Shown here piece by piece: positions 66-64,000 of a stretch of DNA of 64,000 nucleotides. The translations under genes and the position numbers were made by a program. A model generated the notes under the pieces. The model made no database searches, had not been told where the DNA came from, and saw only the letters and a list, made by a program, of their open reading frames with translations. Numbering within the stretch: position 1 is the stretch's first letter; each line of letters starts with the position of its first letter. Source of the DNA: a virus; the IMG/VR virus record IMGVR_UViG_3300017767_000005. One strand, written 5' to 3'.

Positions 66-210
66 CCAGGAACCTTTTACCGGAAAAGTAAATCATAAAA
101 AGATATCCAGGAAATCTAAGACCAGGTTTTTTTTACCGAAAAAATAAGTCGTAAAAAATATCAGAAAGAAAAAGACCAGGATTTTGTTTTACCGAAAAAA
201 TAATTCCAGG
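66..210 (+). repeat. CCAGG-cored direct repeats in the left terminal non-coding region
   Basis: CCAGG at 66, 107, 122, 176, 206; AGACCAGG-T-rich-ACCGAAAAAATAA repeated at about 119-147 and 173-203. Confidence 0.8.
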
Positions 211-219
211 TCTAAATAA

Positions 220-262
220 AAAATAGTCGCGAAATGCCTAAACCGGAAGTATTATATACCCC
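220..262 (+). promoter_or_regulatory. Early promoter 1: upstream TAGTCGCG element plus TATA box
   Basis: AAAATAGTCGCGAAA (220-234) and ATTATATACCCC (251-262); same architecture at 1849 and 15436. Confidence 0.75.
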
Positions 263-4453: not shown

Positions 4454-5128
4454 ATGAAGAATTGGTTGTCAGAAGAGATATTTAACGAAGAGGCAGGGCA
4501 TTGTGATTATTGGGATTGGCAATTTGAGTCAATCAATTTCCAATGGCTACCGAAGCGTGGAGTTTGGCATATCAGATATTATGATTATGCGGGTATTTTT
4601 AACGGAAAAATAGAAGGTCGAGAAATGACCCGATGCGTATGTAATGACGGTCAATTTACACACTACATGGTCGAAGGCACTAAGGACAACTTGAAGAGAA
4701 TACCACTTCGATGTCCTACATGCGAGCCGGAACCTACACCCGTACCGGAACCTACAATGTGTTTTGTTGAAGATGATAGAAGTTATCGTAATTCTCATGC
4801 AGGTTCGGGTTTGATGATTCACGATTCAAATTGTAATCATATTCAATGGAAACATCACGGAATGTATTTTATGGAGAAAAGTATTCCTATCACAAAAGAA
4901 GGTATGGAAACTATCGCTTGGAATATGCTTGCAGACATAGCGCGTGAAATTGATTCAAACTACGATGTTCCCAAAGGCCATGTCCCTTGCACTGAAGATG
5001 AGTGGAGAGATTGCTTTAACCTTGAAAGAGCGAAGCGAAATGCAACCATTGATGTGATGCACTACGCTACTTGCGATTGCATGAAAGAGCATCGGGAAAG
5101 AATAGAAAAAGAATTGGGGGAAAACTAA
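4454..5128 (+). CDS. Hypothetical protein with Cys/His motifs
   Basis: 224-aa ORF; CPTC and PEPTPVPEPT linker. Confidence 0.65.
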   Translation: MKNWLSEEIFNEEAGHCDYWDWQFESINFQWLPKRGVWHIRYYDYAGIFNGKIEGREMTRCVCNDGQFTHYMVEGTKDNLKRIPLRCPTCEPEPTPVPEPTMCFVEDDRSYRNSHAGSGLMIHDSNCNHIQWKHHGMYFMEKSIPITKEGMETIAWNMLADIAREIDSNYDVPKGHVPCTEDEWRDCFNLERAKRNATIDVMHYATCDCMKEHRERIEKELGEN

Positions 5129-5255
5129 TGAAGAAAAAAGAAATGATAGAGATAGCAAGGAATTGTCTTGAGGCGATTGAGGCCGGAGGCGATAGAGAAA
5201 CCGGCACGATGATGTTAATAAAAGAAAATCTAAAGTTAATGTTGGGGGAAAACTA

Positions 5256-5672
5256 ATGTCAGAAGAAAATGTGGAAGATTTGGAAAAAACAAAAATGCAG
5301 TATTTAGGTCGCACTAGAGATAACAAAAAAGTAAGTGTAAAGATATTCGGCAATATGAATGCCACTTCAACCTTTGGAAATGTCAAGGCATTCAAACACT
5401 TGGTTATCGGACAGATATTCTTTGTCCCTAAAAGTAAAGATGATACAGGTTGGTACTTAGGCCACATCGAATACGGTGATGTCGAAGATTGCGACCCGAA
5501 GTATATTGTCGCTGATGAAATCGCTAAGAAACAACGGACACAGAAAACCGTAGCAAAGAAGTTTGACGGCATAGGTAGTTTAACCCTAAATGAAATCGTT
5601 GAAAAATCTTGGCAACTCAATCAATCACAGAAAGCACAACTTATAGGGCTAATTGTATCGAGGCTATCATAA
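5256..5672 (+). CDS. Hypothetical protein
   Basis: GGGGG SD and TAATG coupling; preceded by small ORF 5128-5256. Confidence 0.65.
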   Translation: MSEENVEDLEKTKMQYLGRTRDNKKVSVKIFGNMNATSTFGNVKAFKHLVIGQIFFVPKSKDDTGWYLGHIEYGDVEDCDPKYIVADEIAKKQRTQKTVAKKFDGIGSLTLNEIVEKSWQLNQSQKAQLIGLIVSRLS

Positions 5673-6568
5673 TGATAAATGTATTATCTTGTTTCGATGG
5701 TATTTCGTGCGGTCAAGTCGCATTGGAAAAATCCGGTATAGAATACGAAAACTACTATGCCTCCGAGATAGATAAATCAGCGATAGAAGTAACTCAACAT
5801 AATTATCCTAAAACTATTCAGTTAGGAGATGTTGAGGATTGGGAGTCTTGGAATCTTGAGAATGTCGATTTGGTTATGGGCGGTAGTCCATGCCAAGGTT
5901 TCAGTGTGGTTGGTAAACGATTAAACTTTGACGACCCAAGAAGTAAACTATTCTTTACTTTTGCAGATATTCTAAAACATTACAAACCTAAGTATTGGCT
6001 TTATGAAAATGTGATTATGGATGATGATATACGCGATGCGATTTCAGAAATCTTAGGAACGCAACCCGTTATGATTCAGTCGGCTGATGTATCAGCACAA
6101 TTACGGAAAAGGTATTATTGGTCTAACATTCCATTTTGTTCTCCGAGAAAACTAATAGTGAACATAGAGGATATTTTAGAAGATAAAGAATACAAATATC
6201 CAGCATCAATTATTGGTCGCAGGTTAGACGAAGATGGTTACAGAAAAGACCATGACGAATCAATACCACGCGTTCAGTATCTATCAGTTAGGAAAGGAAA
6301 GAAGGCAGGTTGCCTAACGACTGTAACCAAAGATTCAGTAGTCAGCAAATTACCACACGGTCAATACCATGACGCTTACAATACTCATAAAAATAGTTGG
6401 CGACATTGGACTCCGCTAGAAAGAGAAAGACTACAAACTCTCCCCGATGGTTATACAGAAATCATGGGTAAATACAATAGAGAGAAAGGTATTGGTAACG
6501 GATGGACTGTTGATGTTATCGTTCACATATTCAAGTCGATTGAAGGAGAAAACACGGTTTGGTTGTGA
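5672..6568 (+). CDS. C5-cytosine DNA methyltransferase
   Basis: Motif I CFDGIS, motif II EID, catalytic GSPCQGFS, ENV, QLRKRYYW, GNGW. Confidence 0.93.
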   Translation: MINVLSCFDGISCGQVALEKSGIEYENYYASEIDKSAIEVTQHNYPKTIQLGDVEDWESWNLENVDLVMGGSPCQGFSVVGKRLNFDDPRSKLFFTFADILKHYKPKYWLYENVIMDDDIRDAISEILGTQPVMIQSADVSAQLRKRYYWSNIPFCSPRKLIVNIEDILEDKEYKYPASIIGRRLDEDGYRKDHDESIPRVQYLSVRKGKKAGCLTTVTKDSVVSKLPHGQYHDAYNTHKNSWRHWTPLERERLQTLPDGYTEIMGKYNREKGIGNGWTVDVIVHIFKSIEGENTVWL

Positions 6569-6606
6569 TTACCAGCATTTATATACTATCGAAGGTAGGG
6601 TTAGAT

Positions 6607-7401
6607 ATGGCGGAGAGAGAGAAGTCAGATAAGATGAATTGCCCGAATGGTAGTTGTCGTGTCGTCACCTTTGAAAGAGGTGGATGGAAAGACGGTCTAT
6701 GGGAGTATGAAGATTCAAGCGCATGGTCGGCTATGCAGAATAACCGTTGTCCGGGATGCGGAGAAGTAGGTGAAGATTTATGAGCGAAGATTTACGGAAA
6801 AAGAAACCTACAAAGACTAATTTGTTGAGAGCATACCAATCACTTACTATGGAGATTGATGAACACTTTCGCCGCAACGATACCTTGACATCAGAAGAAT
6901 GGGATAGGTTAGGTAATGAAGCATTTGCACACATTCAATTTATGAAAAAGGGGGAAAACTAATGAGCGAAAGAGCAGAAGAAGCAAGAGAGGGTTTTAGA
7001 ACAATTTTGGAAAACATAAACGATGAGTTAGAGGGCGGAGATGTCGTATTAGACTTTGAAGCGTTTCCAGCATATCATATATTCTTAGATGTTCTAAACA
7101 CACTTGTAGGTCAAAAACTTAGAGATATGAAGGCTACCGATGAATTAATGGAAAAACTAAACAAGATTAACAGACTCAGTGAAGGTGACGGTTTAGTATT
7201 CAATATGGGGGATGAGAAATGACTAAGGAAATGACAAAAATACAAGTTTCAATAGGATGCCCAAGCGGTCAAACCGATTGGGGTAATGGTTATATTATCG
7301 TTAAAGTTTCAAAAGGATTTGAGAGTGAGTTTGTTGAGGCAATCAAAGACCATGCACGATTCTTTGCTAAGGAATATACTTTGGAGGATGATGCACAATG
7401 A
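6607..7401 (+). CDS. Four small coupled ORFs (6607-6783 Zn-finger, 6780-6962, 6962-7222, 7219-7401)
   Basis: ATGA/TAATG overlaps and SDs; CPNGSC...CPGC in the first. Confidence 0.55.
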
Positions 7402-10094: not shown

Positions 10095-10112
10095 TTATAT
10101 TTTTCACCCTGC

Positions 10113-10299
10113 TACTGAAAGAATTATTCGGCTTTCAGTCCATCGGTTTTTTACAATTCTTGAATTAATTCATAGAGGGGGGGAGGGATTGTTCTATTAC
10201 TTACTTATCTTATTATTACTTCTTTTTCTTACATGCCTATGAAACAATTCAAGAATTAATCTAACTTGCTCGCAGTATCTCGATTTAATTCTTTCAGTA
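10113..10299. other. Candidate replication origin (nested inverted repeats)
   Basis: 14-bp perfect IR (10113-10126/10286-10299) and 19/21 IR (10155-10175/10237-10257) share centre 10206; G-run and pyrimidine-rich core; upstream of the helicase operon. Confidence 0.6.
10114..10152 (+). terminator. Hairpin plus T-run ending the early operon
   Basis: ACTGAAAG/CTTTCAGT stem, then CCATCGGTTTTTT. Confidence 0.4.
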
Positions 10300-10355
10300 A
10301 GATACCTAATTATTGAAACATTATGCTTATATCCTATATCGTGTAAGATAGTAAC

Positions 10356-15021: not shown

Positions 15022-15438
15022 ATGGCGCATAACATGAGCGCAACGAATAGAAGAGTTAGGAGAGCAATTTTGGAAATACTATACGATAGTGGCCCTATGA
15101 CTAAAGAGGAAATGGCTTCTGCTTTAGCGGCGAGAAAAGGTGTTGCTCATGTTCCTTCTCCGCATAGTTTGTCGGCACTACTTTGTAAGTCGCACAGTAT
15201 CATACAGTTAGGAAAAAAGAAAGTTGAAAACTCTCTAGGTGTAAGTACCAAACATAATGTGTATGACATTGACCGCGATGTGATTTTGTGTAAGGATGAA
15301 TTGATTCATATTCGTGAACCATCCACAATGACTCCAAAGGAAAAAGTAAAGGCGGCTAAGTGTCTATCATGTGGTCGAACAAGAATCAAACCCGAAGGAT
15401 TTGATGAATGTTTGACTTGTGTTAGAATCACAGAATAG
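15022..15438 (+). CDS. Winged-helix plus zinc-ribbon protein
   Basis: AILEILYDSGPMTKEEM HTH start; CLSC...CLTC. Confidence 0.7.
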   Translation: MAHNMSATNRRVRRAILEILYDSGPMTKEEMASALAARKGVAHVPSPHSLSALLCKSHSIIQLGKKKVENSLGVSTKHNVYDIDRDVILCKDELIHIREPSTMTPKEKVKAAKCLSCGRTRIKPEGFDECLTCVRITE

Positions 15439-23501: not shown

Positions 23502-23837
23502 ATGAGTGTTATGAATCTCAAGAACGGGGCTTTGCGTAACCTTGACCTAAAACAGACAAACGATTTGTTACTAATAATAGACGGTAAAGTAAGTAAGCGT
23601 AAGCGATACTTGAAGGTTGCATTGTTAGCGGCTTTGACTTACGACTTTGAAGGTGACAGTTTCTATCTTGCGAGCGAAGTCGCTAAGAGAGCGCAACGAT
23701 ACACTAACAAGAATTGCGATATGACAAGTAAAGTTGCGGGTAATCTATTAGGTAATATGTATCGTATGGGTATCTTGGAACGAACAACCGCCCCTCCACA
23801 CAATTACAGATTGAAGGAGGAATATAGGGTTGTCTGA
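23502..23837 (+). CDS. Winged-helix DNA-binding protein
   Basis: AAGGTGA SD; LASEVAKRA...VAGNLLGNMYRMGILE...YRL. Confidence 0.7.
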   Translation: MSVMNLKNGALRNLDLKQTNDLLLIIDGKVSKRKRYLKVALLAALTYDFEGDSFYLASEVAKRAQRYTNKNCDMTSKVAGNLLGNMYRMGILERTTAPPHNYRLKEEYRVV

Positions 23838-24861
23838 TGTTACTATTCATGTGGGAGATTGTATCGAGCAGATGCGTAACATTCCCGATGAATCCGTTGA
23901 TACTGTAATCACAAGTCCTCCGTATTGGGGATTGCGTGACTATGGCGGTGACGGCAGGGTTTGGGGAAATCGTTATTGTGACCGAGAAGGTGTGATTTTT
24001 CCGAACCACGAATGGGAAGGTTACACAAGACCAAGTGAGAATACCCGTAAAAATAATAATTCGTTGCAATTGAAATCAGCATATTGGGAACCCCAAGAAC
24101 AAGCGTTCTGCAAACATTGTGATGCGTGGTTCGGACAGTTAGGACTTGAACCAACGCACGAACAATATGTTAAAAATATGGTAAAAGTATTTGATGAAGT
24201 CAAGCGTATTCTCAAACCCGAAGGCACACTATGGTTGAATCTAGGCGATTCTTACTGTGCAGGTAGTCGTAAGTCCAATGTCGGACAAACTATGCACGAA
24301 GGGGATGAGAGAACACTACCAACACAAATGCGTAATCAAGCAAGTGGTAGTTTGAAGGGTAAGGATTTAGTAGGCATCCCTTGGAAGGTAGCACTTGCGT
24401 TACGAGAAGCGGGATGGTGGTTACGACAAGATATTATTTGGGCTAAACCAAATTGTATGCCGGAGTCTGTAAAGGATAGATGCACCAAGAACCATGAGTA
24501 TATGTTTTTGCTAACTAAGTCTGCACATTATTACTTCGACCATGAGGCCATAAAAGAAGGGGAAAACAAAAGGAATAAGCGTAGTGTTTGGTGGGTTAGT
24601 CCTAAGCCCTTTGCAGAAGCGCATTTTGCCGTATTCCCTATTGACTTGATTGAGCCTTGTGTGCTTGCAGGTAGTCCCGTTGGTGGCACTGTGTTTGACC
24701 CCTTTGGTGGGTCGGGAACAACTGCGATAGCCGCAATCAAACATGGACGCAACGCGATACTAACTGAATTGAGTCCCGACTATGTTAAAATAGCGGAAAA
24801 AAGAATATCCGATTTCAAACAAACGACAGGGCTTGACAAAGAGGGGGTCGAATGGCTCTAA
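23830..24861 (+). CDS. N4-C/N6-A DNA methyltransferase (beta type)
   Basis: TSPPY, DIIWAKP, FDPFGGSGTT; Cys/His-containing insertion. Confidence 0.93.
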   Translation: MSDVTIHVGDCIEQMRNIPDESVDTVITSPPYWGLRDYGGDGRVWGNRYCDREGVIFPNHEWEGYTRPSENTRKNNNSLQLKSAYWEPQEQAFCKHCDAWFGQLGLEPTHEQYVKNMVKVFDEVKRILKPEGTLWLNLGDSYCAGSRKSNVGQTMHEGDERTLPTQMRNQASGSLKGKDLVGIPWKVALALREAGWWLRQDIIWAKPNCMPESVKDRCTKNHEYMFLLTKSAHYYFDHEAIKEGENKRNKRSVWWVSPKPFAEAHFAVFPIDLIEPCVLAGSPVGGTVFDPFGGSGTTAIAAIKHGRNAILTELSPDYVKIAEKRISDFKQTTGLDKEGVEWL

Positions 24862-25463
24862 AGAGGGTTCTTAATTTGTATTCAGGTATTGGTGGTAATA
24901 GGGAGTTATGGAAAGATTGCGAAGTAACTGCCGTTGAAATTGATGAGGATATTGCTAACTTTTACGCTAAAAGGTTTCCTCAAGACGAAGTTATTGTGGG
25001 TGACGCACATCAATTTCTTTTAGACAATTACGAAGATTTTGATTTCATTTGGAGTAGTCCTCCTTGTCCTTCTCATAGTCGAGCGCGATTTTGGAATGAG
25101 AAGGCTGAAAGACTTTATCCCGATATGAGTTTGTATCAAGAGATTTTGTTTTTACAACATCACTTTGACGGTGGTTTTATTATCGAAAATGTAGTACCTT
25201 ACTACGAACCTTTGATTGAAGGAACGAAGATAGGGAGGCATATGTTTTGGTCTAACTTTGATTTGAATGTCAATTACAAGAACGATAGAATAAAGACCGA
25301 AAGGGGTAATTTGGAAACATTTGAAGAGGAATGTGGGTTTAGCACAAAGGCTTTAGGTCAATGGAGGAAACGCTATACTGTTCTAAGGAATATGGTTGAC
25401 CCGAAATTAGGTTCGGTTTTGTTTAATAGTTATGATAAAAGTAATAAGGTGGATTGGTTATGA
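24852..25463 (+). CDS. Short C5-cytosine DNA methyltransferase
   Basis: LYSGIGG, VEID, SPPCPSHS, IENV; only 203 aa, so a minimal target-recognition region. Confidence 0.8.
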   Translation: MALKRVLNLYSGIGGNRELWKDCEVTAVEIDEDIANFYAKRFPQDEVIVGDAHQFLLDNYEDFDFIWSSPPCPSHSRARFWNEKAERLYPDMSLYQEILFLQHHFDGGFIIENVVPYYEPLIEGTKIGRHMFWSNFDLNVNYKNDRIKTERGNLETFEEECGFSTKALGQWRKRYTVLRNMVDPKLGSVLFNSYDKSNKVDWL

Positions 25464-26726: not shown

Positions 26727-28949
26727 ATGATAGTGGATGCAGTAGGCCGGAACAATGTCGTAGTTAGACACAGGGATGCAGACGGTAAGCGTGTCGAAAC
26801 CACGATTACTGACTTTTATCCTTATTGTTATGTTGAGGATGAATCGGCTGAGTATGTTGAAGGTGCTAAGGAACAGGGTTACAAGGGAGTGTTTGGCGAA
26901 TCGCTGACTAAGGTAACTGTTAGGTCGTCTGATAGTATTAGACGAATCAAGGAGATTGGCCCAACATGGGAAGCGAATATCCCGTATGTCAACCAAGTTT
27001 TAGCGGCTAAAGTAAAGCGTGGTGATGAGCCATTTGCACCGTATGAACACCGAGTTTGGTATCTCGATGGTGAATGGAAGATAAGCACAGGCGAAATCAC
27101 TATGCTTTCAGTCTATGATAGTTTTACGGAAAATCTATACTCATGGGTTATGATAGGTGGTATCGGTGCAGGTAAATACAAGTCTTTGTTGGATGCCAAC
27201 AATAACTCGTATGAATACGATACTCCGGTTCTTGCGTTTGAAACCGAGCGTGAATTGTTACAACACTTTGTTGGATTTATGCGTAAACAAGACCCCGACA
27301 TTATCACCGGATGGTATGTCGCAGGTGCGGATATTAAGCAAATCGTCAAGCGTTGTCAAGCGGTTGGGGTCAAGGCGCAGTTAATGTCGCCTTACAACCG
27401 TTTGCGGTATGACTATGGCGATTGGTCGCAACCTATTGTTGGGAGAAATGTAATTGATTTGATGCAAGCATTCCCTAAGTTATGGGAATTGAAGAATGGT
27501 AAGTTAGGCGGTTACAAATTAGACAATGTAGCAAAGGAATGTTTAGGGGAAAGTAAAGTCGAGTTGCCCGATGGTCACGACACATATTATTCCGACCCTG
27601 TTCTGTATCTCGATTACAACAGACAAGATGTTGCTTTACTCCCAAAACTAAATGCTCTTGTCAACGCGATTGAATACTTCATAGCGGTTCAACACATCGT
27701 TCAGTGCGATATTGCTACTACTCCTTTTGTGACAAAAGTATTTACTTGTTTGACATTGTGTGACCCCGAAGTGGATTTCCAAATCCCATCCAAACCTATA
27801 TTTGACAAGGTGAAATACGATGCGGCTATTGTTCTCGATGCGCCACAGGGAATACACCGCAACATAGGTATCTTTGATGTTAAAGCCATGTATCATAGTA
27901 ATGTGAACCTTCACAACATATCATGGGACACACTTGACGCAAATGGCAAGGATTGTGGTAACGGTACTTGTTTCACCCAAGATAAACAGGGTTTGCTTGG
28001 TCGTCAAATGGATAACATGACAAAATTGCGTGACAAATACAAGGCTTTGCTCAAGGGTGCTAAGACCGATGAGGAAAGGGTGCGTTATGACGCATTACAG
28101 TACGCTACGAAGTCTTTAGTGGCTTCGATGTATGGTTGTGCCGGTGACGCAAAGTATGGCCTCTATCACCCCGATATAGCGTCTGCTATTACTCATGCTT
28201 CAAGGGAAACATTGTTGAAGTTAAAGTCGGTTGCTGAATCTCATGGTTTTCCCGTAGTGTACGGACATACTGATTCTGTTATGTGCGAGATACCTTCTGT
28301 CGAAAAGGGTCTTGCTGAATTGGATTCTATTAACGAACAAATGAGTCCTATTATCGTACAGTTTGAGAAGTGGTCGTCAACATTCCTTTTGATGGGTAAG
28401 AACCGATATTGTGGTCTTGTTGAATGGACTGATGGTGAACACCATGACCCGAAGCGATATGTCAAGGGAATTGAGTTGAAGCAATCTCGTATGCCCGAAA
28501 TAATGAAAGAATCAATGGGTAAAGTAATTGATGGTATTCTCAACAATACAGATTCGGTAAAAGTAACTGATGAATTGTGTGATTTGATAGACAGTATTGT
28601 TAGCGGTAAAATAGACCCGCTTGAATTGTGTATGAAGGGCAAACTAACTAACGATTTAGAGAAGTATAAGAGTATCAGTGGTGCGGCGGCTGGCGCGCAG
28701 TGGGCTAATCGTACATTAGGTAAGGGCTACCGCAAGGATGATTACTTCTTGTGTGCTATCGACCCAAAAGGTAACTATATTGCCTTCGACCACCCAAGCG
28801 AAATAGAGGGTATTACTGAAATCGGCTATCGCACTATGGTTGAGCGTTTTATTATCAGTAAAGTAAAGCCATACTACGAAGTCGCAAATTGGGATATGAC
28901 CGCACTTCTTATCTCTATGGATGGTAAGAAGAATACTATGTGGATTTAG
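26727..28949 (+). CDS. polB: Family B DNA polymerase
   Basis: Exo motifs (LDGE, DPDIITGW, YNRQD); FDVKAMYHS, K...SMYG, YGHTDS, KNRY. Confidence 0.95.
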   Translation: MIVDAVGRNNVVVRHRDADGKRVETTITDFYPYCYVEDESAEYVEGAKEQGYKGVFGESLTKVTVRSSDSIRRIKEIGPTWEANIPYVNQVLAAKVKRGDEPFAPYEHRVWYLDGEWKISTGEITMLSVYDSFTENLYSWVMIGGIGAGKYKSLLDANNNSYEYDTPVLAFETERELLQHFVGFMRKQDPDIITGWYVAGADIKQIVKRCQAVGVKAQLMSPYNRLRYDYGDWSQPIVGRNVIDLMQAFPKLWELKNGKLGGYKLDNVAKECLGESKVELPDGHDTYYSDPVLYLDYNRQDVALLPKLNALVNAIEYFIAVQHIVQCDIATTPFVTKVFTCLTLCDPEVDFQIPSKPIFDKVKYDAAIVLDAPQGIHRNIGIFDVKAMYHSNVNLHNISWDTLDANGKDCGNGTCFTQDKQGLLGRQMDNMTKLRDKYKALLKGAKTDEERVRYDALQYATKSLVASMYGCAGDAKYGLYHPDIASAITHASRETLLKLKSVAESHGFPVVYGHTDSVMCEIPSVEKGLAELDSINEQMSPIIVQFEKWSSTFLLMGKNRYCGLVEWTDGEHHDPKRYVKGIELKQSRMPEIMKESMGKVIDGILNNTDSVKVTDELCDLIDSIVSGKIDPLELCMKGKLTNDLEKYKSISGAAAGAQWANRTLGKGYRKDDYFLCAIDPKGNYIAFDHPSEIEGITEIGYRTMVERFIISKVKPYYEVANWDMTALLISMDGKKNTMWI

Positions 28950-52010: not shown

Positions 52011-52955
52011 TCAAATTACGCCTGTAATCTTAGCAATTCTGTTGTTTGTTCCGCTTGAAGCACCATCTTGGGATTCGTGAATAACTGTTCCCATGTAGCC
52101 TGTAAGCATCCAATCGAATCCAACACCTGGAAGGCGAGTTAATTCAGTTTCTTGGAAACCAGCACCGTTGTAAGTGAAGAACTCAGCAGTTTCGCTACCT
52201 GGAATAAGTAGTAGTGCATCATCTTCAAGAGCCGAAGCCGCGCTACCTGTTCCCGGATTTACTTCGTTCTTACCACCTGTGTAATCGCGAGTGTAGTAAA
52301 CAGTCATGTTTGCAATTCTTCTCATATGCTCTTGTAGTGACTCGACTACATTTCCATATAGTTGAGTGTTTAGAAGTGCGCTTCGTGTGGAAGTAGGTAG
52401 GACAAGTGCCATTCCTTCATCACCGGAAACTCTTGCATTTGAGTAAACTAAGTCCATTGTGTCGAGAAGGTCTTTTTCTTCATCTGCACTTGCTGAACCA
52501 AAGGTTGCAGTAGCCGCTTTGGACTGACCTGCGCCTGTGTGTAGTCCGTCTAAGATTAGGTTGTCAATTGTGTTAGCCCTTGCACGAACAATTCCCAACT
52601 GTTGTCGGTCAATGTTTTCAAAGGACTCGCCACGAAGTCTAACTGTGTCTAGGAAAACACATCGACCCATACCTTTCTGCAACTTTACAGTGTAGTTTGC
52701 GGTTCCGACCTTTGTTGGGTCTGCGATAGCCGCATCATCTAGTGGGAAAGTAAAAGACCCGTCAACACCTGTGTACCACTTGAACTCAAGCCAAGGAACA
52801 CTTCTAACACCTACAAGGTCTGTACCTATTGCAAGTCTGTTAGATTGCAACTGAATAAAGTCACGAAGGGTTTGCTCAAGAACGCTGTCGCCGACACCGA
52901 ATGGGCCAGCCGCCGCGCCTACATTTAAGATTTCTTCCAAAGAATTATTTGCCAT
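52011..52955 (-). CDS. Major capsid protein (HK97 fold)
   Basis: 314 aa; position after protease; pattern of E-loop, spine helix IVRARANTIDNLIL, ALVLP, LLIP. Confidence 0.85.
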   Translation of the reverse strand: MANNSLEEILNVGAAAGPFGVGDSVLEQTLRDFIQLQSNRLAIGTDLVGVRSVPWLEFKWYTGVDGSFTFPLDDAAIADPTKVGTANYTVKLQKGMGRCVFLDTVRLRGESFENIDRQQLGIVRARANTIDNLILDGLHTGAGQSKAATATFGSASADEEKDLLDTMDLVYSNARVSGDEGMALVLPTSTRSALLNTQLYGNVVESLQEHMRRIANMTVYYTRDYTGGKNEVNPGTGSAASALEDDALLLIPGSETAEFFTYNGAGFQETELTRLPGVGFDWMLTGYMGTVIHESQDGASSGTNNRIAKITGVI

Positions 52956-52982
52956 TTTAATCACCTATTCATTATTTTAGTT

Positions 52983-53402
52983 TCAACTTGTAGCCGCCTG
53001 TGTGACATTGATAGGAACCAAGTCGCCAGCACTTGAACTTGTTGTTTCGCCTGTCCCGACATAAACTCCAATGAGTTTTCGGGAAGAAGAAGTAGTACCG
53101 CACACACCAGCCGCTTGTGCATAAACCAAGAGTCCGGTTGTGTAAGTTTGAGAAGCCGCAGAAGCAATCATCATTGTTCCGTTTAGTGGAATGAATGAAA
53201 CTGTTGCATTTGCAGTTTCAAGTGTACCATCTGCGTCACGGCTTGATTCGCCCATTGAAACTCCAATGGCGATTTCGTTAGCCGCAGTTAGGTCTAACTT
53301 GTTGTTAGTCGAATCGTGTACTAATAAATAACCGACACCTGCAACTGTTGTTGCATCTTTTAGTGTTGCGGTTCTTGGGTCGTTTGCGCTAAATGCTACC
53401 AT
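52983..53402 (-). CDS. Capsid cement/decoration protein
   Basis: Ala/Thr/Gly-rich (AIGVS...IGVYV); lies between protease and MCP. Confidence 0.65.
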   Translation of the reverse strand: MVAFSANDPRTATLKDATTVAGVGYLLVHDSTNNKLDLTAANEIAIGVSMGESSRDADGTLETANATVSFIPLNGTMMIASAASQTYTTGLLVYAQAAGVCGTTSSSRKLIGVYVGTGETTSSSAGDLVPINVTQAATS

Positions 53403-53403
53403 T

Positions 53404-55614
53404 TCAAATCATCTCCTTAATTTCTTCATAACTTTGTGCTTTGAATCTTCCATCACGCATTTCAACACCACTTAGGGTCTTGTTCCACGCTGAAGCCCAT
53501 GCGTTATATCCCTTAGCGTAGGTTGCTTCGGGAGTTTCAACAACTTTACCGTTTAGGTAATTTGCTACTACTGCTTCGGACTTTGCCGGTGCAGGGGTGG
53601 ATTCTGATGCAACCGCAGGTTCAACCGGCTTCATTTCAGCAGGTTCTTCGACCTTTGGACGGGATTCTTCCCAAGATGCAATAAGAGAACTAATAGTATC
53701 GCTTGATAAATCTTCGTGACCTTTCAAACCCATTTCAGTTGCTTTTGCTACAAGTGCAATTCTTTCATCTTCAATTTTCTTTGCTTCAATTGCCTTAAAC
53801 TCAGCAATAGTCGCTTGTGCAAGGATTAAATCTGCTTTAAGGGCTTCTGCTTCAGCCAATGCTTCGGAAGCAACTGCACCCATTTCTTCATTAATAATTT
53901 CGTCGCTCATGGTAGTTTCACCTTTTTGCTGAACTGTGGCAGTTGTGGTTTGATACTTAAATGATTCTGTCGAAATCATATCATTTTCTATAATTTCTTC
54001 ATTTTCAGAAGCGGCCATAGGTTTAATTTTATTAACTTCTTCTATGTTCGCTCTCTCATAAGCAGGTTTATGCACGATAGCCAAGTGGTCAAATGTAAAG
54101 TCGCTTTCAAAGACCATACCATCATCGTTTGCTTGGATAGGAACACCGTAACCACCAATAGATACACCGTAATTACTACGCAACCATAGACCGGATTCAA
54201 GAGCCTCAAATAATTCTGTCCTTTGGACTTGAGCCTTGTAGCGAACATTCCACTTACCGGCTTCTAACTCTTCAAGACTTGCTTCTGTAACAACACCAAC
54301 AACGGCTTCATCAATCCCACCATCCATGTTACGAGAGAATCCTATCTTTGTTGGCTTAGGGTGATTTAGTGTTAAGTCTGCACCTACCATCTGTTGCATA
54401 GCGACATCTGCACCTTTACGAGTTAAAGACCAATTGTTTTTGTTCATGCCTTCATGGAATGCAATACCGGATATTTCAATAATTGACTTTCCGGTTGTTG
54501 CTTCGACTTTTGCTACTACATCGTCAATAGTAATCTCCATAGTAACATTAACAGGCTGACATGTACCAGCAACCAACTCTTCACCAACGGGACAAGAATC
54601 TTCGGAAGCATATGCTTTATCTTCTTCATCTTCACCATCTTCTGAGTATATTTTTTTCATATATCCGGCTTCTTCCTTTTCCGGTATATCCTTACCTTTG
54701 TTTTTACTCATGTATTCTTCATGGGTTTTACCGGGCATAAAAACTTTCTTGCCATCTTCTTCATGTGAATGAATACCATCAAGACCCATTTCTTTTGCAC
54801 GACTCATGGCTTCAGTCGGATTATCGAATACATCTTTGCGAATCATCTTTGCTTCAACGGTTCCTCCACCACAACCTCCGCCACAACCACAACCTTCTTC
54901 GGAAGCCTTCTTTGACTTTCTGCCGTGATTGCTTGGTAGCAAATCATTGTCTTGAACATATTTAGGATTAGATGGTTTACCGCTTCTAACTAACTTTAGG
55001 AATGCGTTTACTCTTGCCATAGACCATGCGGCTCTTGAAACACCGGGTCGGTGAGATGTGGAAAAAGCACCAGCACCACGGCGATATACTGCCTTTAGCA
55101 TACCAAGTGTAACTTTCTTTTCACTTTTTTTGTTATGCTCACTAACTTTTGTTTTCAAAGACTTAGTTACTGATTCGGAAAAAGTAACTCCGCCTTTAGA
55201 GTCTTTTGCTGAATCTTTTGGATTTTTATTAGAGCCTTTGCGCCTATCTTTTGGTGGCGCAGGGGTTGAAGAATCTTTATCGGAATAGATTTTTTTCATA
55301 TGTACCGCTTCAACAGGACTACTTCTCCATTGACGGCAAGACCAATATCCGGGTGTTGTACGGTCTTTTTTATTTGCACAATCATGTCTGTCACGGAATG
55401 CTTTGCGTCTTTTAGGGTCGTCACGCTTAATTTCCATGTTAGGGTCGCCAAACCTTACAATAATTACTTTACCGCTACTATTAGTGGTATAGACTCCAAA
55501 CTTCTTTTTTTCATTAGGTGTTCGGAATGGTTTGTTAAGAGTAACTTTACGCCCTTGGTATTCTGCCGCACTGACATTTTCTTCTTCCCAATCTTCATAA
55601 CTAGGAGTAGGCAT
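53404..55614 (-). CDS. Prohead protease-scaffold polyprotein with N-terminal accessory domains
   Basis: Protease motifs LNHP, GVSIGG, FDHLAIVHKPAY; C-terminal coiled-coil scaffold; about 370-aa N-terminal extension. Confidence 0.85.
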   Translation of the reverse strand: MPTPSYEDWEEENVSAAEYQGRKVTLNKPFRTPNEKKKFGVYTTNSSGKVIIVRFGDPNMEIKRDDPKRRKAFRDRHDCANKKDRTTPGYWSCRQWRSSPVEAVHMKKIYSDKDSSTPAPPKDRRKGSNKNPKDSAKDSKGGVTFSESVTKSLKTKVSEHNKKSEKKVTLGMLKAVYRRGAGAFSTSHRPGVSRAAWSMARVNAFLKLVRSGKPSNPKYVQDNDLLPSNHGRKSKKASEEGCGCGGGCGGGTVEAKMIRKDVFDNPTEAMSRAKEMGLDGIHSHEEDGKKVFMPGKTHEEYMSKNKGKDIPEKEEAGYMKKIYSEDGEDEEDKAYASEDSCPVGEELVAGTCQPVNVTMEITIDDVVAKVEATTGKSIIEISGIAFHEGMNKNNWSLTRKGADVAMQQMVGADLTLNHPKPTKIGFSRNMDGGIDEAVVGVVTEASLEELEAGKWNVRYKAQVQRTELFEALESGLWLRSNYGVSIGGYGVPIQANDDGMVFESDFTFDHLAIVHKPAYERANIEEVNKIKPMAASENEEIIENDMISTESFKYQTTTATVQQKGETTMSDEIINEEMGAVASEALAEAEALKADLILAQATIAEFKAIEAKKIEDERIALVAKATEMGLKGHEDLSSDTISSLIASWEESRPKVEEPAEMKPVEPAVASESTPAPAKSEAVVANYLNGKVVETPEATYAKGYNAWASAWNKTLSGVEMRDGRFKAQSYEEIKEMI

Positions 55615-58651: not shown

Positions 58652-58998
58652 GTTTTTATCCCCTCTTGCATGATAACACGGTATGGTTACGGTTGATTCA
58701 TAATTATTGGGTCAATTTGCCCCAAAGTTAATTGTTTTGAAAAATTATACTTTTTCAGAAAAAATAAAACGCACTACTGCGAGCCATGTTGCTAATTCTT
58801 TTATTGTTTCATAGACAGAAAGTAAAAAGAAGTAATAAGAATAACAAGCGGGGCCAAGAATATACCTATGAAATAATTCAACAATTAACAAAAACCGCAA
58901 TACTGCGCCCAAAATAATTCTTTCAGTAGCAACATAATTTACAGAAATAATATGGTTGATAGACAAGCCTATAAAGGGGTGGCTCTTGGGATTAAATA

Positions 58999-60426
58999 AT
59001 GGGAAAAAGATGTCCTGTCAATGTCGGCTACGAGTTAATACCGGAACACTACGACCCTGCAATATCTATACTTGCAAATGCAAGAGCATTACATAAGATA
59101 AATGATATTCGTAGTGTCAAAGGTTGGGAAATGGCAATATACCGTTGGAAACAATCCGATGGTAAAGTTGTAAAACCTGCCGAACCCGAACCAAAAAGTA
59201 TCAGCACTTCTTACTATTATGATAAAGACGATGATACATACATTACATTTTTAGAATCAGCCGGTAAAATGATTTTTATTAATGGTGAACAACACCGCAA
59301 CATGAAGGCCGCATATTCTGACATGGTTGGTAAAGGTGCTACTGTTACTGAAATGGCACGAAGATTTGAAATGCCGAAGGCTTGGTTTGATGAATACAGA
59401 CGCAGACATAGTTGGAATCACGATATGTTGCCATATACTGATGAACAAGTTATGGCTAACTCCACTGACGACTTAGTAAAAGACTTACTTGAGCAACAAA
59501 AAAATGAGTTGCACACCGAGTTTGAGCGCAAAAAGTGGAAAAGGATAGAAAAAGATGCTGAAAAGTATCAAAACTTTGAATATGAAATACTTGCTGAGTT
59601 TAAGGATATTATTTCACAGGCAGATTTAACAGTTACAAAACTTGAAATGAACGATGAGGGTCACGATTATTCCCTTGTTGTATCTCCAACTGATTTTCAT
59701 TGGGGTAAATACGGTTGGGTTGATGAAGTAGGTGAACAGTATGATTTTGAAGAAGCCAAAAAACGCCTTATGGAAAAAACAAGCGAATTGATTTCCCGAT
59801 TACCTTCTCGCCCCGAACAGATTATTTTAGCAACAGGTAGCGATTGGTTCCATGTTGATAACGACCAAGGCACTACAACAAGAGGAACACCACAGGATAT
59901 GTGCGGTAGCCCTGCTGAAATCCTAATGACGGGTTGCCAAATGGCAAGAGAACATATTGATTTACTAAGACAAGTTGCACCCGTTAAGGTTGTATTCATG
60001 CCGGGTAACCATGACCGCATGAGTGCAATTGCACTTATGATGTATTTGTCTGCCGTTTACGAAAATACATATGATTGCGAAGTAGTAGTTAGTCCATCCA
60101 CCCGACAATATGTTGAATACGGTAACAATTTAATGGGCTTTATTCATGGTGATGGTGCTAAAAATCTTGAAGAGTTAATGTCATGTGAAAAGCGTGAGTT
60201 ATGGGGTAAGTGCGAACATCATACTTGGTTCCACGGACATTTGCATCATCGTAAAGTTTTAGAAAGTAAGGGTTGTTTAATTGTTCAATTACCAAGTCTT
60301 GCAGGTCACGATAGATACCATGCGCGACAAGGTTACACAACAAGTAAGGCTGGATTAGCGGCACATATCATAGACAAAGAAATGGGTCTAATTGGTAGTT
60401 TGTTTGCGCCGGTGGTGGGACATTGA
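58999..60426 (+). CDS. HTH plus calcineurin-like metallophosphoesterase
   Basis: TDFHWG, GSDWFH, PGNHD, IHGD, HGHLH; HTH-like TVTEMARRFEMP. Confidence 0.85.
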   Translation: MGKRCPVNVGYELIPEHYDPAISILANARALHKINDIRSVKGWEMAIYRWKQSDGKVVKPAEPEPKSISTSYYYDKDDDTYITFLESAGKMIFINGEQHRNMKAAYSDMVGKGATVTEMARRFEMPKAWFDEYRRRHSWNHDMLPYTDEQVMANSTDDLVKDLLEQQKNELHTEFERKKWKRIEKDAEKYQNFEYEILAEFKDIISQADLTVTKLEMNDEGHDYSLVVSPTDFHWGKYGWVDEVGEQYDFEEAKKRLMEKTSELISRLPSRPEQIILATGSDWFHVDNDQGTTTRGTPQDMCGSPAEILMTGCQMAREHIDLLRQVAPVKVVFMPGNHDRMSAIALMMYLSAVYENTYDCEVVVSPSTRQYVEYGNNLMGFIHGDGAKNLEELMSCEKRELWGKCEHHTWFHGHLHHRKVLESKGCLIVQLPSLAGHDRYHARQGYTTSKAGLAAHIIDKEMGLIGSLFAPVVGH

Positions 60427-60593
60427 GTATTTCCCAAAAACAAAAAACAATAAAGTTTCCTCAAAAGAAATTAAGAAAATGCAATACTTGTGGTTATGAA
60501 GCAATAGTAATGTATAACACACACAAAGTATGGTGCAACAAAACTAAAAAAAGTAAATACTGCGGCACTATGAGGGTGATTAGAAATGAGTAG
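60423..60593 (+). CDS. Zinc-ribbon microprotein (KYCGTMRV family; not in ORF track)
   Basis: TTG overlapping the previous stop; RKCNTCGYE...KYCGTMRVIRNE. Confidence 0.6.
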   Translation: MSISQKQKTIKFPQKKLRKCNTCGYEAIVMYNTHKVWCNKTKKSKYCGTMRVIRNE

Positions 60594-60717
60594 TAAAAGA
60601 GAAAGTGTTGTATGCACTAATGTTGTTTGTGGTTGGGCTTCCCGACACTACCCTCGCCAAAAGGCTTTAACAAGAGAATGCCCCGTATGTCACTTGCGCT
60701 CGCTCAAAGCGCGGTGA
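60586..60717 (+). CDS. Zinc-ribbon microprotein (43 aa; not in ORF track)
   Basis: GAGGGTGA SD; CTNVVC...CPVC. Confidence 0.55.
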   Translation: MSSKRESVVCTNVVCGWASRHYPRQKALTRECPVCHLRSLKAR

Positions 60718-60783
60718 ATAGTATGTATAACCTTAGAAAAGATGTATTATGGAATCTTCCAATAACAATGTATGTGATGAAAA

Positions 60784-62289
60784 ATGTCGAACCTCAAAAG
60801 AGCATTAGCCTTTGAACGGGCAAAAAACGATGTAAAGTATTTTTACAAGTGGCTTGGTTACTCATGGGGTAATCATATTGGCGAATGGATGGATATGTAT
60901 TCAGCCAAAGATGATATGCACATTAACCGTGTATGTATTATTGCACCAAGAAGTCATAGTAAGTCTGTTACTTTAGGCGTAAAACTATTACATATGTGTT
61001 TGTTTGAAAGGTTTAACAAAAAACCTATGGATATTTGGTTATTTTCGGCAAGCCAAGATACGGCTAAAAGACGATTGGCTGAAATCCGCAAAGACTTAAC
61101 AAGCCATAAAGAGTTATCCCGCTATCTTAACACTAAAAAGGGTGGTAAAGAAGAATTATGGTTGACTAACGGTGCAGTAATACGATGTTCTTCTGTTGGG
61201 TCTGCAATTCGTGGCGACCATCCCGCAGTAGTAGCACTTGACGATGTATTGCTTGATGCTAAAAAAGAATTAAACAATGAGCAGTTGCGACATTGGTTGC
61301 GTAAAGTAGTTATGCCAATGCTTGACCCGGGTTCTAAGTTGTTTTGTGTTGGGACACCTATGGCTCAAACTGACTTATATCATACTGAAATGCTTGACAA
61401 TGCACTTTGGAAATCCGGTGTATGGACGGCGTTACCTAATTGGGATGAGGCGAAAGACGAACCGGATAAATTAGTGGCACTTTGGCCGGAGTTTAGACCT
61501 GTTGGTTTTCTTTTAGAACAACGGGCAGTATGTGGTGAGTTAGAGTTTGCTCAAGAGTTTTTGTGTCGAGTCATTGACGATGAATCTTCTGTATATCCTC
61601 GCAAATACACAAGGCGTAATTTAGACTTAGAGCAAACATTTGATACTGACAAGCGAGCAGGTATGCGATATGTTATTGGGTTTGACCCATCACAAGGGCT
61701 TGGAAAGGACTATTCCGTTATGGTAGTTGTTAGACAAGAATCCGATGGTAGTCTTGTAGTCTGCAACATTTGGAGGCGTAATGATTTTTCCCCCGATAAA
61801 CAGGCTGACATGATAGGGGAATGGTGTAAGCGTTATGGTGCGCCACTTGCGGCAGAAGATGTAGGGTTTCAAAGACTGTTTAAGAGTTTATTAGAAGCCA
61901 AAGGAATAAATGTGGATTATCGACAAAGCAAAGTAAGCAATAAAGGTTTGAAGCAAGGGTTGTTAAATCGTTTGCGAGTTTGGTTTGAAAGAGAAAAGAT
62001 AGTTTTTGCTTATGGTAGTGACGCAGTAAGGCGTTCTGTAAATCTAATGCTTGAAGAATTAGAATCCCATGCTTGGAAGGCAGGGGAAATCGTTGATACC
62101 GGCAGACATAATGACTTGGTAATGGCACTTGCTCATGCAATCGACCAATTCTCATCAAATATCAATGATGTTCCCGTTGTCATGGGGTCTATGAACCGTG
62201 GTGAATGGCAGGGTGGAAGTAGCGGCAAGACACGCGCTGGCAGGTATTCTGGTTTGGGCGGTAGGGTTGTATCTCGTAGGCGTTTATAA
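60784..62289 (+). CDS. terL: Terminase large subunit
   Basis: Walker A variant APRSHSKS, VALDD, VGTP, QEF, nuclease IGFDPS and HNDLVMALA. Confidence 0.92.
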   Translation: MSNLKRALAFERAKNDVKYFYKWLGYSWGNHIGEWMDMYSAKDDMHINRVCIIAPRSHSKSVTLGVKLLHMCLFERFNKKPMDIWLFSASQDTAKRRLAEIRKDLTSHKELSRYLNTKKGGKEELWLTNGAVIRCSSVGSAIRGDHPAVVALDDVLLDAKKELNNEQLRHWLRKVVMPMLDPGSKLFCVGTPMAQTDLYHTEMLDNALWKSGVWTALPNWDEAKDEPDKLVALWPEFRPVGFLLEQRAVCGELEFAQEFLCRVIDDESSVYPRKYTRRNLDLEQTFDTDKRAGMRYVIGFDPSQGLGKDYSVMVVVRQESDGSLVVCNIWRRNDFSPDKQADMIGEWCKRYGAPLAAEDVGFQRLFKSLLEAKGINVDYRQSKVSNKGLKQGLLNRLRVWFEREKIVFAYGSDAVRRSVNLMLEELESHAWKAGEIVDTGRHNDLVMALAHAIDQFSSNINDVPVVMGSMNRGEWQGGSSGKTRAGRYSGLGGRVVSRRRL

Positions 62290-62542
62290 ACCTCTTTTTG
62301 AGATTTTTTGTCGCGAATTTTTTTTGGTACTAAGCAGTGTGATTCCTGGCGGGGTATAGATTTTTGTAGTCAAAATGCTACCTAAAATCCTAAAATCGCT
62401 CATAAACGCACCCTGGTGGCCTTCATTTTCTGCGGTGCTACCTATTGACCTAATTTATATTTGATGGCCTCCAGGACCCCCCTACGGGCTTAATTTCGCT
62501 ATTTCTATCTGTGGGGTTTGGGTCTGAACGCGATTTCAAAAT

Positions 62543-62576
62543 AAAAAAAAGGGAGGGAGGCCGAAGCCTCCCCCCC
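62543..62576 (-). terminator. Intrinsic hairpin terminator with UUCG loop
   Basis: Minus strand G7AGGC-TTCG-GCCTCCCTCCC then T-run; 20 nt after the stop at 62597. Confidence 0.8.
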
Positions 62577-62596
62577 AATTCTTTATTCTATTCGCA

Positions 62597-63724
62597 TTAC
62601 TGCGGGCTGTCACCCCCTACTAGGCGGGACATGTCAACCGCTAGACCAAGGTAAGGAGTACCATTGAAATCGAATACAACCGGCTTCAATGCTACTCGAT
62701 ACCATCCGTCTTTATTGTCTGACATTTTGCGGGTGTAGGCTTTCAGTCTGCTGGATGCAAGCAATTCTTGAACCATTGAAACCGCATCATACCCTCTCTT
62801 CTTGGCCGCAAGCATCTTGTTTGCTAGTTTTTGACTCTCAATCTTGACTCTTGTAAACTTGACATCACCGGACATACTAGCACTGAGTTTTCCGTCAACA
62901 ACTTGAGGCAGGTCAAAGCATACACCTTGCTTGGTTAACTGTGTTCTGTGGTTGCCACAATGAGGGCAACCATTCGCCGCACTGACCATTTTGATTCCAA
63001 GGTTGCCACGACCACAACCGCCCATCTTCTTGGAACATCTGTAAGAGGATGCACGAAGTCTAATGCTGTGGATTGAATGAGCATTGACACAAAGGTGCGA
63101 ATAACCTTCTTCAGTGCCATATTGCTTAACTTTCAATATGTGTCTGTAAGTTGTTGAATTAACTATCTCGTCACCGTAAAATTGGGACATCTCATAATCA
63201 CTAGGATTAATTTCAATATATTCAACTGTTGAAGCATCTGTCACATTGAATGCTCTAAGTAAATCTTGACCTGTGACTTCCAACTCACTGAGTTTGATAG
63301 GGTAGCCACCACGACCACTAATTAGGTCTGAATATCTGTCCTGTGCTTGATGTGCTTCAATGCAAACCTGTACTGCCTTGGTTAGCATTCTGTTAGTTGT
63401 TGCCATGAACATTATTTGCTCAATCATGACCGGGAACTTTGAACCGTTGTCATAGGTGACAACTAGGTGCTTTCCTAAGTGGTTCTGTAAGTATTGACCG
63501 TTTGCCATAATGTTAGGCAGGTCGACTGTTTTTGCAATCCTGTTAAGGTCTGCATTAGTGAAACATTCTGAAGCCTTGAAGTCCTCATCTTTGAGGGTCT
63601 TGACTACATTACCGCCGACTATTTTGGCGGTCATTTTCAGTACTGTCATTGTTGCTTTAACCTCATCAAGCGGGTTGGTCGTATCGTCGTTCTCATTGTT
63701 AGCATGGTTCATTTCTGTGTCCAT
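62597..63724 (-). CDS. Orphan 375-aa protein with internal zinc finger
   Basis: GGAGG SD; CSKKMGGC...CPHC; own promoter and terminator. Confidence 0.8.
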   Translation of the reverse strand: MDTEMNHANNENDDTTNPLDEVKATMTVLKMTAKIVGGNVVKTLKDEDFKASECFTNADLNRIAKTVDLPNIMANGQYLQNHLGKHLVVTYDNGSKFPVMIEQIMFMATTNRMLTKAVQVCIEAHQAQDRYSDLISGRGGYPIKLSELEVTGQDLLRAFNVTDASTVEYIEINPSDYEMSQFYGDEIVNSTTYRHILKVKQYGTEEGYSHLCVNAHSIHSIRLRASSYRCSKKMGGCGRGNLGIKMVSAANGCPHCGNHRTQLTKQGVCFDLPQVVDGKLSASMSGDVKFTRVKIESQKLANKMLAAKKRGYDAVSMVQELLASSRLKAYTRKMSDNKDGWYRVALKPVVFDFNGTPYLGLAVDMSRLVGGDSPQ

Positions 63725-63762
63725 TTTTACGCCTCCTGTGGAGGCTGTGACAAGCCATCACC

Positions 63763-63822
63763 ATATATAGTCTGCGACTATTTTCATCATTTTGCGACCA
63801 TTTTCAACAATTTTCGACTGAG
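63763..63822 (-). promoter_or_regulatory. Promoter with tandem TAGTCGC-like elements
   Basis: Minus strand: CAGTCG, TGGTCGCA and TAGTCGCA at about 20-nt period, followed by TATATA. Confidence 0.6.
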
Positions 63823-63964
63823 CCAAGGGTCATTTTTCTGACTAGGATTTGCTCACTATACAACCAAAGGTTCAGTAGTGATTATTAATTTTCCAGGATT
63901 TTTTATTAATTCGGAATTAATAACTTTCCAGGAATTATTATTAATTCCGGGAACCAGGATTTTG

Positions 63965-63984
63965 AAAATAGTCGCGACTATTTT
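63965..63984. repeat. Perfect 20-bp palindrome
   Basis: AAAATAGTCGCGACTATTTT. Confidence 0.9.
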
Positions 63985-64000
63985 TTTGTGACTATTAAAA

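Follow-up and report, generated by a model that had tools for sequence, protein, structure and literature searches.

Gene content of the window and its affiliation

The DNA analysed here is a stretch of 64,000 nucleotides from the IMG/VR virus record IMGVR_UViG_3300017767_000005, referred to below as the window. It encodes a family-B DNA polymerase (26727-28949), a Cpn60 chaperonin, a clamp-loader-like AAA+ protein, PD-(D/E)XK and ERCC4 nucleases, three DNA methyltransferases and a large terminase (TerL, 60784-62289). A DNA search with both window ends against 50,697 phage records gave zero matches, and the polymerase shares only ~23% protein identity with the polymerases of haloarchaeal viruses. 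Over 130 contigs of IMG/VR and over 120 from marine metagenomes carry relatives of TerL with 58-97% identity; the TerL of contig L001 is 97% identical to that of the window at the amino acid level and 88% at the nucleotide level. The gene set matches the description of magroviruses, viruses of Marine Group II/Poseidoniales archaea, whose genomes were reported to be linear and terminally redundant (PMC5434244). The window was assigned to a magrovirus of Marine Group II (Poseidoniales) archaea, and its promoters are therefore of the archaeal TATA type. Magroviruses are uncultured and abundant, and to our knowledge nothing is known about the control of their genes.

Layout of the early control field

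The sequence-only reading of the window proposed that CCAGG/CCTGG (CCWGG) is confined to the termini and early promoters, and that the copies at the left end share an orientation and lie in direct repeats. The features of these regions are listed below in window coordinates.

21-58, + strand: GC-rich hairpin followed by a T-run, terminator-like as read from the sequence; directly precedes the left CCAGG repeats
66-210, + strand: five CCAGG in three ~55-bp tandem units upstream of promoter P1
224-260, + strand: early promoter P1, with a TAGTCGCG box (224-231), a 19-nt spacer and the TATA-like ATTATATACC (251-260)
1790-1802, + strand: two adjacent CCAGG, ~55 nt upstream of the box of promoter P2
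1853-1889, + strand: promoter P2, with a TAGTCGCG box (1853-1860) plus TTATATACCC
62345-62475, no strand assigned: three CCWGG in the 0.3-kb spacer after TerL, from the alignment with L001, L002, L214 and L003
62597-63724, - strand: p375, gene of a rapidly evolving zinc-ribbon protein of 375 aa, with transcription directed away from the field
63893-63958, + strand: three CCAGG, of which two belong to 35-bp tandem units; flanked by the p375 promoter and the palindromic box
63969-63980, no strand assigned: palindromic box TAGTCGCGACTA, the first element of the box field, which runs on past the window end; its continuation is represented by L001 4901-6660

The left-end copies are indeed all CCAGG on the + strand and reside in three tandem units, each of which consists of CCAGG, a T-tract, ACCG, an A-tract and a degenerate box. 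The location of the surviving sites in early-promoter and control repeats is also non-random, as had been proposed. The label 'termini' had to be abandoned, as the positions so named are merely the ends of the window (a cut or an assembly end) and not mapped genome ends. Contig L001 aligns with window 59082-63998 and continues with another ~1.7 kb of repeats and two small ORFs in reverse orientation, after which a promoter at 6617-6656 aligns to window 220-259. Because L001 is continuous through the repeats to P1, the two window ends represent the flanks of one control field that has been split here and is continuous in the relatives. The order in this region is TerL, a 0.3-kb spacer, the divergent zinc-ribbon gene p375, a field of ~2-3 kb with 20-33 TAGTCGCG boxes, P1 and the early genes; the same order was found in L002, L003 and the 59.8-kb relative G001.

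Two further conserved non-coding elements were observed. A block after TerL (window 62290-62400, alignment columns 60-115), which reads TCGCGAATTTTT ... GGTACTAAGCAGT ... TTAATTTTTGTAGT, is kept in five genomes with differing downstream modules, and it could be a packaging or termination signal. Folding of the TerL spacer alignment revealed a terminator and otherwise no conserved RNA structure, and no Rfam family matched. A palindromic element that precedes the helicase operon (10112-10300; 58730-58890) has BLAST matches just upstream of the TerL module in L002, L003, L004 and L214.

CCWGG is purged from magrovirus genomes

An exact scan identified 19 CCWGG in the window, compared with 75.8 +/- 9.1 expected from dinucleotide-preserving shuffles (100 of 100 shuffles contained more than 19). 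The sites start at the following positions.

66, 107, 122, 176 and 206: cluster upstream of P1
1790 and 1798: cluster upstream of P2
62345, 62412 and 62471: cluster in the TerL spacer
63893, 63928 and 63954: cluster between the p375 promoter and the palindromic box
683, 3263, 33741, 41379, 52126 and 52198: remaining sites

The scan reproduced the earlier counts for every cluster (5, 2, 3 and 3), and the 'about half a dozen' copies estimated for the rest of the window turned out to be exactly six. Four regulatory non-coding stretches (1-300, 1746-1928, 62290-62596 and 63725-64000; 1,069 bp in total) contain 13 CCWGG against 0.93 expected, while the remaining ~63 kb contain 6 against 66.6 expected, an 11-fold depletion, so that the deficit in coding DNA anticipated by the sequence-only reading is strong. 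The comparison with a Markov expectation, which that reading had suggested, gave a divided answer: the deficit is present relative to dinucleotide shuffles and disappears in a maximal-order model (19 observed, 13.7 expected), since the sub-word CCAG has likewise been purged. There are 63 copies of CCAG in the window against 235 expected, and nearly all leftover copies are CCAGC or CCAGG. We counted 43 copies of CCAGC, one of CCAGA and none of CCAGT (95 expected for each of the latter two), as well as five of CCTGA; this pattern suggests additional asymmetric restricted words that overlap CCWGG.

CCWGG is one of many words removed from the window. GATC, AGCT and ACGT have 0 copies each where ~230 each are expected, GCWGC, CAGAG, GAGAC and GCTCC are likewise absent, and GGWCC occurs three times. 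More than 12 palindromes of 6 bp have 0 copies, including AATATT, ACCGGT, ATGCAT, TCCGGA, GTATAC, ATCGAT, TGCGCA, GTGCAC, GAATTC and TTTAAA. The purge of CCWGG, which is among the most consistent of any word in the magrovirus group, extends to the relatives, in which 820 kb contain 19 copies against ~1,280 expected (7 against 628 in the TerL loci L003-L034 and 12 against 657 in L037-L080). Four relatives that are 91-100% complete have 1, 0, 0 and 1 copies where 102, 114, 78 and 118, respectively, are expected. The exceptions to this group-wide purge are a lineage with 74% TerL identity (L035, L036 and L247-250), in which the density is near-normal, L042, and the lineage of the window itself. 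The set of purged words varies among the relatives: GATC is kept in G004, in which CCWGG is purged, GTAC is kept in G001, and CTAG in G003.

Within the lineage of the window the purge is less strict. Coding DNA contains 6 CCWGG in 63 kb of the window and 2 in ~9 kb of L001 and L002, several-fold above the family background of ~0.02 per kb and still ~tenfold below expectation; the excess over the background indicates that the purge has been relaxed in this lineage. Words containing CTAG are tolerated only in this lineage as well.

Decay of 5-methylcytosine by deamination was considered as a cause of the depletion and excluded, since selection is indicated by the zero-copy words and by the occurrence of the pattern throughout the family, and since the CTAG-containing products of such decay are also purged. 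In marine archaeal metagenome-assembled genomes, GATC was reported to be methylated, Poseidoniia showed weak AGCT modification, and some Euryarchaeota had modified CGCG and GTAC (PMC8919816). The purged words thus match motifs reported as methylated in marine archaea, which fits host restriction as the driver, and restriction of CCWGG by the Poseidoniales host is presumably what drives its purge.

Enrichment of CCWGG is specific and limited to one cassette type

The control fields of two relatives are enriched in CCWGG as well, with 16 copies against 1.66 expected in L001 and 11 against 1.94 in L002. GATC, AGCT and ACGT are missing from the regulatory stretches of the window and from the fields of both relatives, where GGWCC, GCWGC and other purged words are represented by 0-2 copies. 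As GATC, AGCT and ACGT are still absent from the field, the field is not merely exempt from the purge, and the enrichment is specific to CCWGG. The partly purged words CTAG and GTAC are uniformly scattered across the window. With the boxes masked, no 6-mer of the L001 field is more over-represented than CCAGGA (13 copies against 0.32 expected), which also ranks first among the words that distinguish the window from 39 kb of its nearest CCWGG-free relatives.

The clusters are conserved in relatives in part: they recur only in L001 and L002, the nearest relatives, which share the cassette, and absent from L214 and L003, whose TerL proteins are 93% and 87% identical to that of the window. Both of the latter retain 24-30 boxes with zero CCWGG, indicating that the motif is not essential to the basic function of the field. 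In the TerL spacer, two or three CCWGG positions are common to the window, L001 and L002 and are substituted in exactly L214 and L003. The p375 protein divides the relatives in the same way. It forms a syntenic family of 375-aa proteins that are 22-85% identical where TerL is 80-97% identical, and the identity to the window copy is 85% in L001, 59% in L002, 32% in L214, 28% in L003 and 22% in G001. This split matches the presence of CCWGG, indicating that the word travels with one type of cassette composed of p375 and the field. The alignment of L214 with the window ends at the TerL spacer and the two are divergent beyond it, which indicates a mosaic genome. The L214 field (5030-7122) has an over-represented word of its own, ACCCCC/GGGGTA (6 copies against 0.23 expected), which may be an alternative second motif for the differing p375 allele of L214.

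Placement of CCWGG relative to boxes and promoters

In the purged sublineages represented by L004/G001, L010 and L221, a CCAGG is located 4 nt after the second TTAGTCG box that follows the palindromic box. Its core is invariant in L004, L010 and L221 while the flanks vary, and L001 has CCAGG at the equivalent place. This conserved copy is the only CCWGG in the 59.8 kb of G001 and in the 13.7-kb locus of L010, and one of two in L221. The sole CCWGG of G004 (loci L066 and L069) is non-coding and lies near repeats or promoter-like TATA elements, and the same is true of one of the two copies in each of L062 and L068. The DNA upstream of P1 shows no alignment beyond 40 bp between the window and L001, yet it contains 5 and 6 CCWGG, respectively; the central W is oppositely oriented in the two, which fits recognition of a palindrome and not of a directional word.

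Among the 37 field sites, 14 lie 0-6 nt from a box, compared with 6.9 +/- 2.3 under random placement (14 was reached in 8 of 2000 trials). Within the window, every CCWGG is at least 10 nt away from a box (nearest gaps 10-13 nt). A fixed composite element with a set distance between box and CCWGG was ruled out, as the gaps are 10-13 nt in the window and range from 2 to more than 200 nt elsewhere; the spacing of CCWGG to boxes or TATA elements is variable. A scan of IMG/VR for a box-N-CCWGG pattern was too unspecific, with at least 120 single chance matches in unrelated contigs, and was not used.

The boxes provide a second case of a purged palindrome in the control field. In L004, L005 and L007, in which the field lies ~2.1-4.6 kb after TerL (52300-54900 in G001), CGCG is ~10-fold purged, and all 7 copies in the three TerL loci (50-69 expected) are inside TAGTCGCG or TTAGTCGCG regulatory boxes. 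Purged palindromes thus persist where they are regulatory.

The sites could have multiplied without any function if the purge had been relaxed by a new host or by protection, and if chance CCWGG copies in fast-evolving repeats had then been tandemly multiplied. Many of the sites are in recent tandem duplications (three units of 55 bp and two of 35 bp, with a decayed copy in one unit) and hence are not independent; moreover, the field turns over fast and moves between genomes as a cassette, the motif is dispensable in L214 and L003, and the coding density is mildly relaxed too. Such neutral hitch-hiking would at most be expected to bring the word back to its compositional expectation, whereas the three genomes with clusters exceed it 6- to 14-fold. 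The sites also occur in many non-homologous contexts, CCAGGA is the top non-box 6-mer in the L001 field, similar densities are reached in regions that cannot be aligned, and fully purged genomes keep an invariant CCAGG with variable flanks at one place. We consider neutral multiplication rather unlikely. The fallback of the sequence-only reading, that the sites are 'plain iterons', comes nearer to the interpretation that we prefer, in which CCWGG would be a repeat bound by a protein.

C5 methyltransferases and candidate binding proteins

The sequence-only reading attributed two C5 methyltransferases to the virus, and both proteins match PF00145. The METHYLTRANSFERASES of the window consist of two PF00145 enzymes and one N6/N4 enzyme.

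5609-6568, + strand: C5 cytosine methyltransferase 1 (MTase-1), 319 aa, in the early region; PF00145, E 4e-38
24852-25463, + strand: C5 methyltransferase 2 (MTase-2), a minimal protein of 203 aa that has the catalytic motifs of the N-terminal part but no evident target-recognition domain
23830-24861, + strand: N6/N4 amino-methyltransferase, from a profile search

PF00145 was not detected in 12 CCWGG-free relative contigs (4 that are 91-100% complete and 8 that are 43-63% complete), in a search that gave matches in two control virus records used as a positive control, and no homologue of MTase-1 was found in G001-G004. The N6/N4 enzyme has a 76% identical ortholog in G001, which is CCWGG-free apart from its single conserved site, indicating that this enzyme is not linked to the tolerance of CCWGG. 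A 44-kb contig encodes P0001, a 94% identical ortholog of MTase-1. The closest viral homologues of MTase-1, 54-63% identical and organised in tandem arrays, are found in contigs without CCWGG. Tandem arrays of two or three DNMT3-like C5 paralogues were seen in two unrelated marine virus contigs (L085 2724-4459 and L086 8284-10864). The nearest solved structures to MTase-1 are DNMT3A/B, over the catalytic core only. Compared with E. coli Dcm, both MTase-1 and MTase-2 show similarity at best over motifs IV-VI and none in the target-recognition region. The joint tolerance of CCWGG and CTAG is what would be expected if protective cytosine methylation had been gained fairly recently, and the link between the methyltransferases and CCWGG is drawn from the one long genome of the CCWGG-positive type in the comparison, which is the window.

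Among the proteins that might bind CCWGG, p375 has as invariant features an SHL..N.H motif and a C..C..CP.C ribbon. It belongs to no Pfam or NCBIfam family, and for its AF2 model (pLDDT 76) Foldseek retrieved no match (best E 0.48) and VIA none with a Z score over 3.9. Searches of IMG/VR with p375 and MTase-2 yielded practically no additional loci. Scanning of ~55 proteins encoded outside the virion-gene block with Pfam and NCBIfam revealed no candidate reader of CCWGG, a missing Pfam match not being decisive, and none of the methyl-reader domains SRA, MBD, EcoRII-N and Vsr was present among them. The early proteins had no informative Pfam, NCBIfam or fold match. Either p375 or an unannotated early protein is a candidate reader or regulator of CCWGG.

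The central proposal of the sequence-only reading was that the state of viral C5 methylation at the clustered CCWGG gates early transcription or packaging, by analogy with Dam methylation at the pac site of phage P1. CCWGG is a classic palindrome of C5 methylation, the orientation of its W is not conserved, as would fit symmetric recognition, and the clusters are flanked by TerL and the early promoters. The C5 methyltransferases are peculiar to the lineage, and the sites are often 3-5 nt from boxes, where methylation could affect box occupancy. As in the GATC clusters of P1 pac and E. coli oriC, a palindrome that can be methylated forms a cluster at a control site beside packaging or early functions, and the genome encodes the matching class of methyltransferase. 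There, however, both the specificity of Dam and the reading of the methylation state are experimentally established, whereas here the system is known from sequence; in addition, the clustered word here is CCWGG in a virus with an archaeal host, and elsewhere in the genome it has been purged instead of being common. Against such a switch speak the DNMT3-like core of MTase-1, which is elsewhere unlike Dcm, the minimal MTase-2 with no recognisable target-recognition domain, the location of the MTase-1 gene in the early region and the absence of a reader domain among the ~55 scanned proteins. The purged relatives keep their single CCAGG with no C5 methyltransferase, which argues that the ancestral site works without viral C5 methylation. 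A methylation-read switch is therefore quite unlikely in our assessment.

DISCUSSION

We consider the chances about even that CCWGG has been selected as a cis-element in the early control field and has been made tolerable in this lineage by viral C5 methylation. This interpretation builds on the purge of the word, its specific enrichment and positional conservation, its co-variation with the cassette and the distribution of the C5 methyltransferases, which are observed in the window and its relatives. To these it adds a binding protein, host restriction as the cause of the purge and protection by methylation, each of which we put forward conditionally below.

In the proposed mechanism, CCWGG, mostly as (T/A)CCAGGA, would be bound by a dimeric DNA-binding protein beside a factor that recognises the TAGTCGCG boxes. 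Poseidoniales hosts would restrict CCWGG, and the magrovirus group would accordingly purge it, so that the word would survive only where it is needed. The ancestral state may have been a single CCWGG beside a box, from which the cassette common to the window, L001 and L002, comprising the p375 allele and the box field, would have acquired dozens of copies by multiplication. That multiplication could have become affordable through the C5 methyltransferases that the relatives lack and that plausibly protect CCWGG. Type IIE/IIF enzymes specific for CCWGG, such as EcoRII, require two or more sites for cutting. If the host enzyme were EcoRII-like, one site would be harmless and clusters would need protection, and this would account for the single CCAGG tolerated in purged genomes.

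The components of this system have counterparts elsewhere. As in other phage and archaeal-virus genomes that avoid restriction sites, short palindromes have been removed genome-wide here; unlike in those cases, one purged word is 14-fold enriched in a defined control region, and the enrichment is confined to one cassette type within the family. Tandem operator arrays are bound by archaeal virus regulators such as F55 of SSV1 and SvtR and AvtR of rudi- and lipothrixviruses, with a gene for a small DNA-binding protein adjacent to the array. The magrovirus field resembles them in having short repeats clustered around divergent early promoters beside a fast-evolving gene. It differs in that two motifs, the TAGTCGCG box and CCWGG, are interleaved, in that the array extends over ~2 kb with 20-30 boxes, and in that the regulator is a candidate only.

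A role of the field in packaging or replication has to be weighed as well. The field could be a concatemer junction or a terminal region in which CCWGG, with or without the boxes, marks a site for the terminase or a nuclease or forms origin iterons, and the purge elsewhere would then partly serve to avoid stray cuts. The field directly follows TerL and precedes the first early promoter, and the window record begins inside it. The ends of T7-like genomes have a comparable placement. A single CCWGG is left in G001 and in G004, in both cases within non-coding repeats, and magrovirus genomes were reported to be linear and terminally redundant (PMC5434244). However, the six coding sites in the window and the normal density in the 74%-TerL lineage argue against a word at which the virus cuts its own DNA, G002 and G003 have no CCWGG at all although G003 is rated 100% complete, and the contigs of relatives run through the field unbroken. 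The boxes are positioned exactly 20 nt before TATA elements at P1, at P2 and at 15436, which points to transcription. Taken together, we find a packaging or terminus function improbable. A scheme that combines these elements, in which the control field is built on host-restricted palindromes that are otherwise purged (CGCG in the TAGTCGCG box and CCWGG beside it) and in which newly gained C5 methyltransferases protect CCWGG and also create an epigenetic state that a cassette-specific protein, with p375 as the candidate, reads to switch early transcription or packaging, is very unlikely.

The early control field of magroviruses is now defined as the boxes between TerL and the first early promoter, CCWGG stands out as a second motif purely because the family purges the word elsewhere, and the lineage-specific relaxation of the purge is linked to acquired C5 methyltransferases. 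A testable prediction follows for the specificity of the C5 enzymes, namely CCWGG and possibly CTAG. If methylation were read at these sites after all, this would be the first epigenetic switch in an archaeal virus. The search for survivors of a purge could find functional sites in other uncultured viruses.
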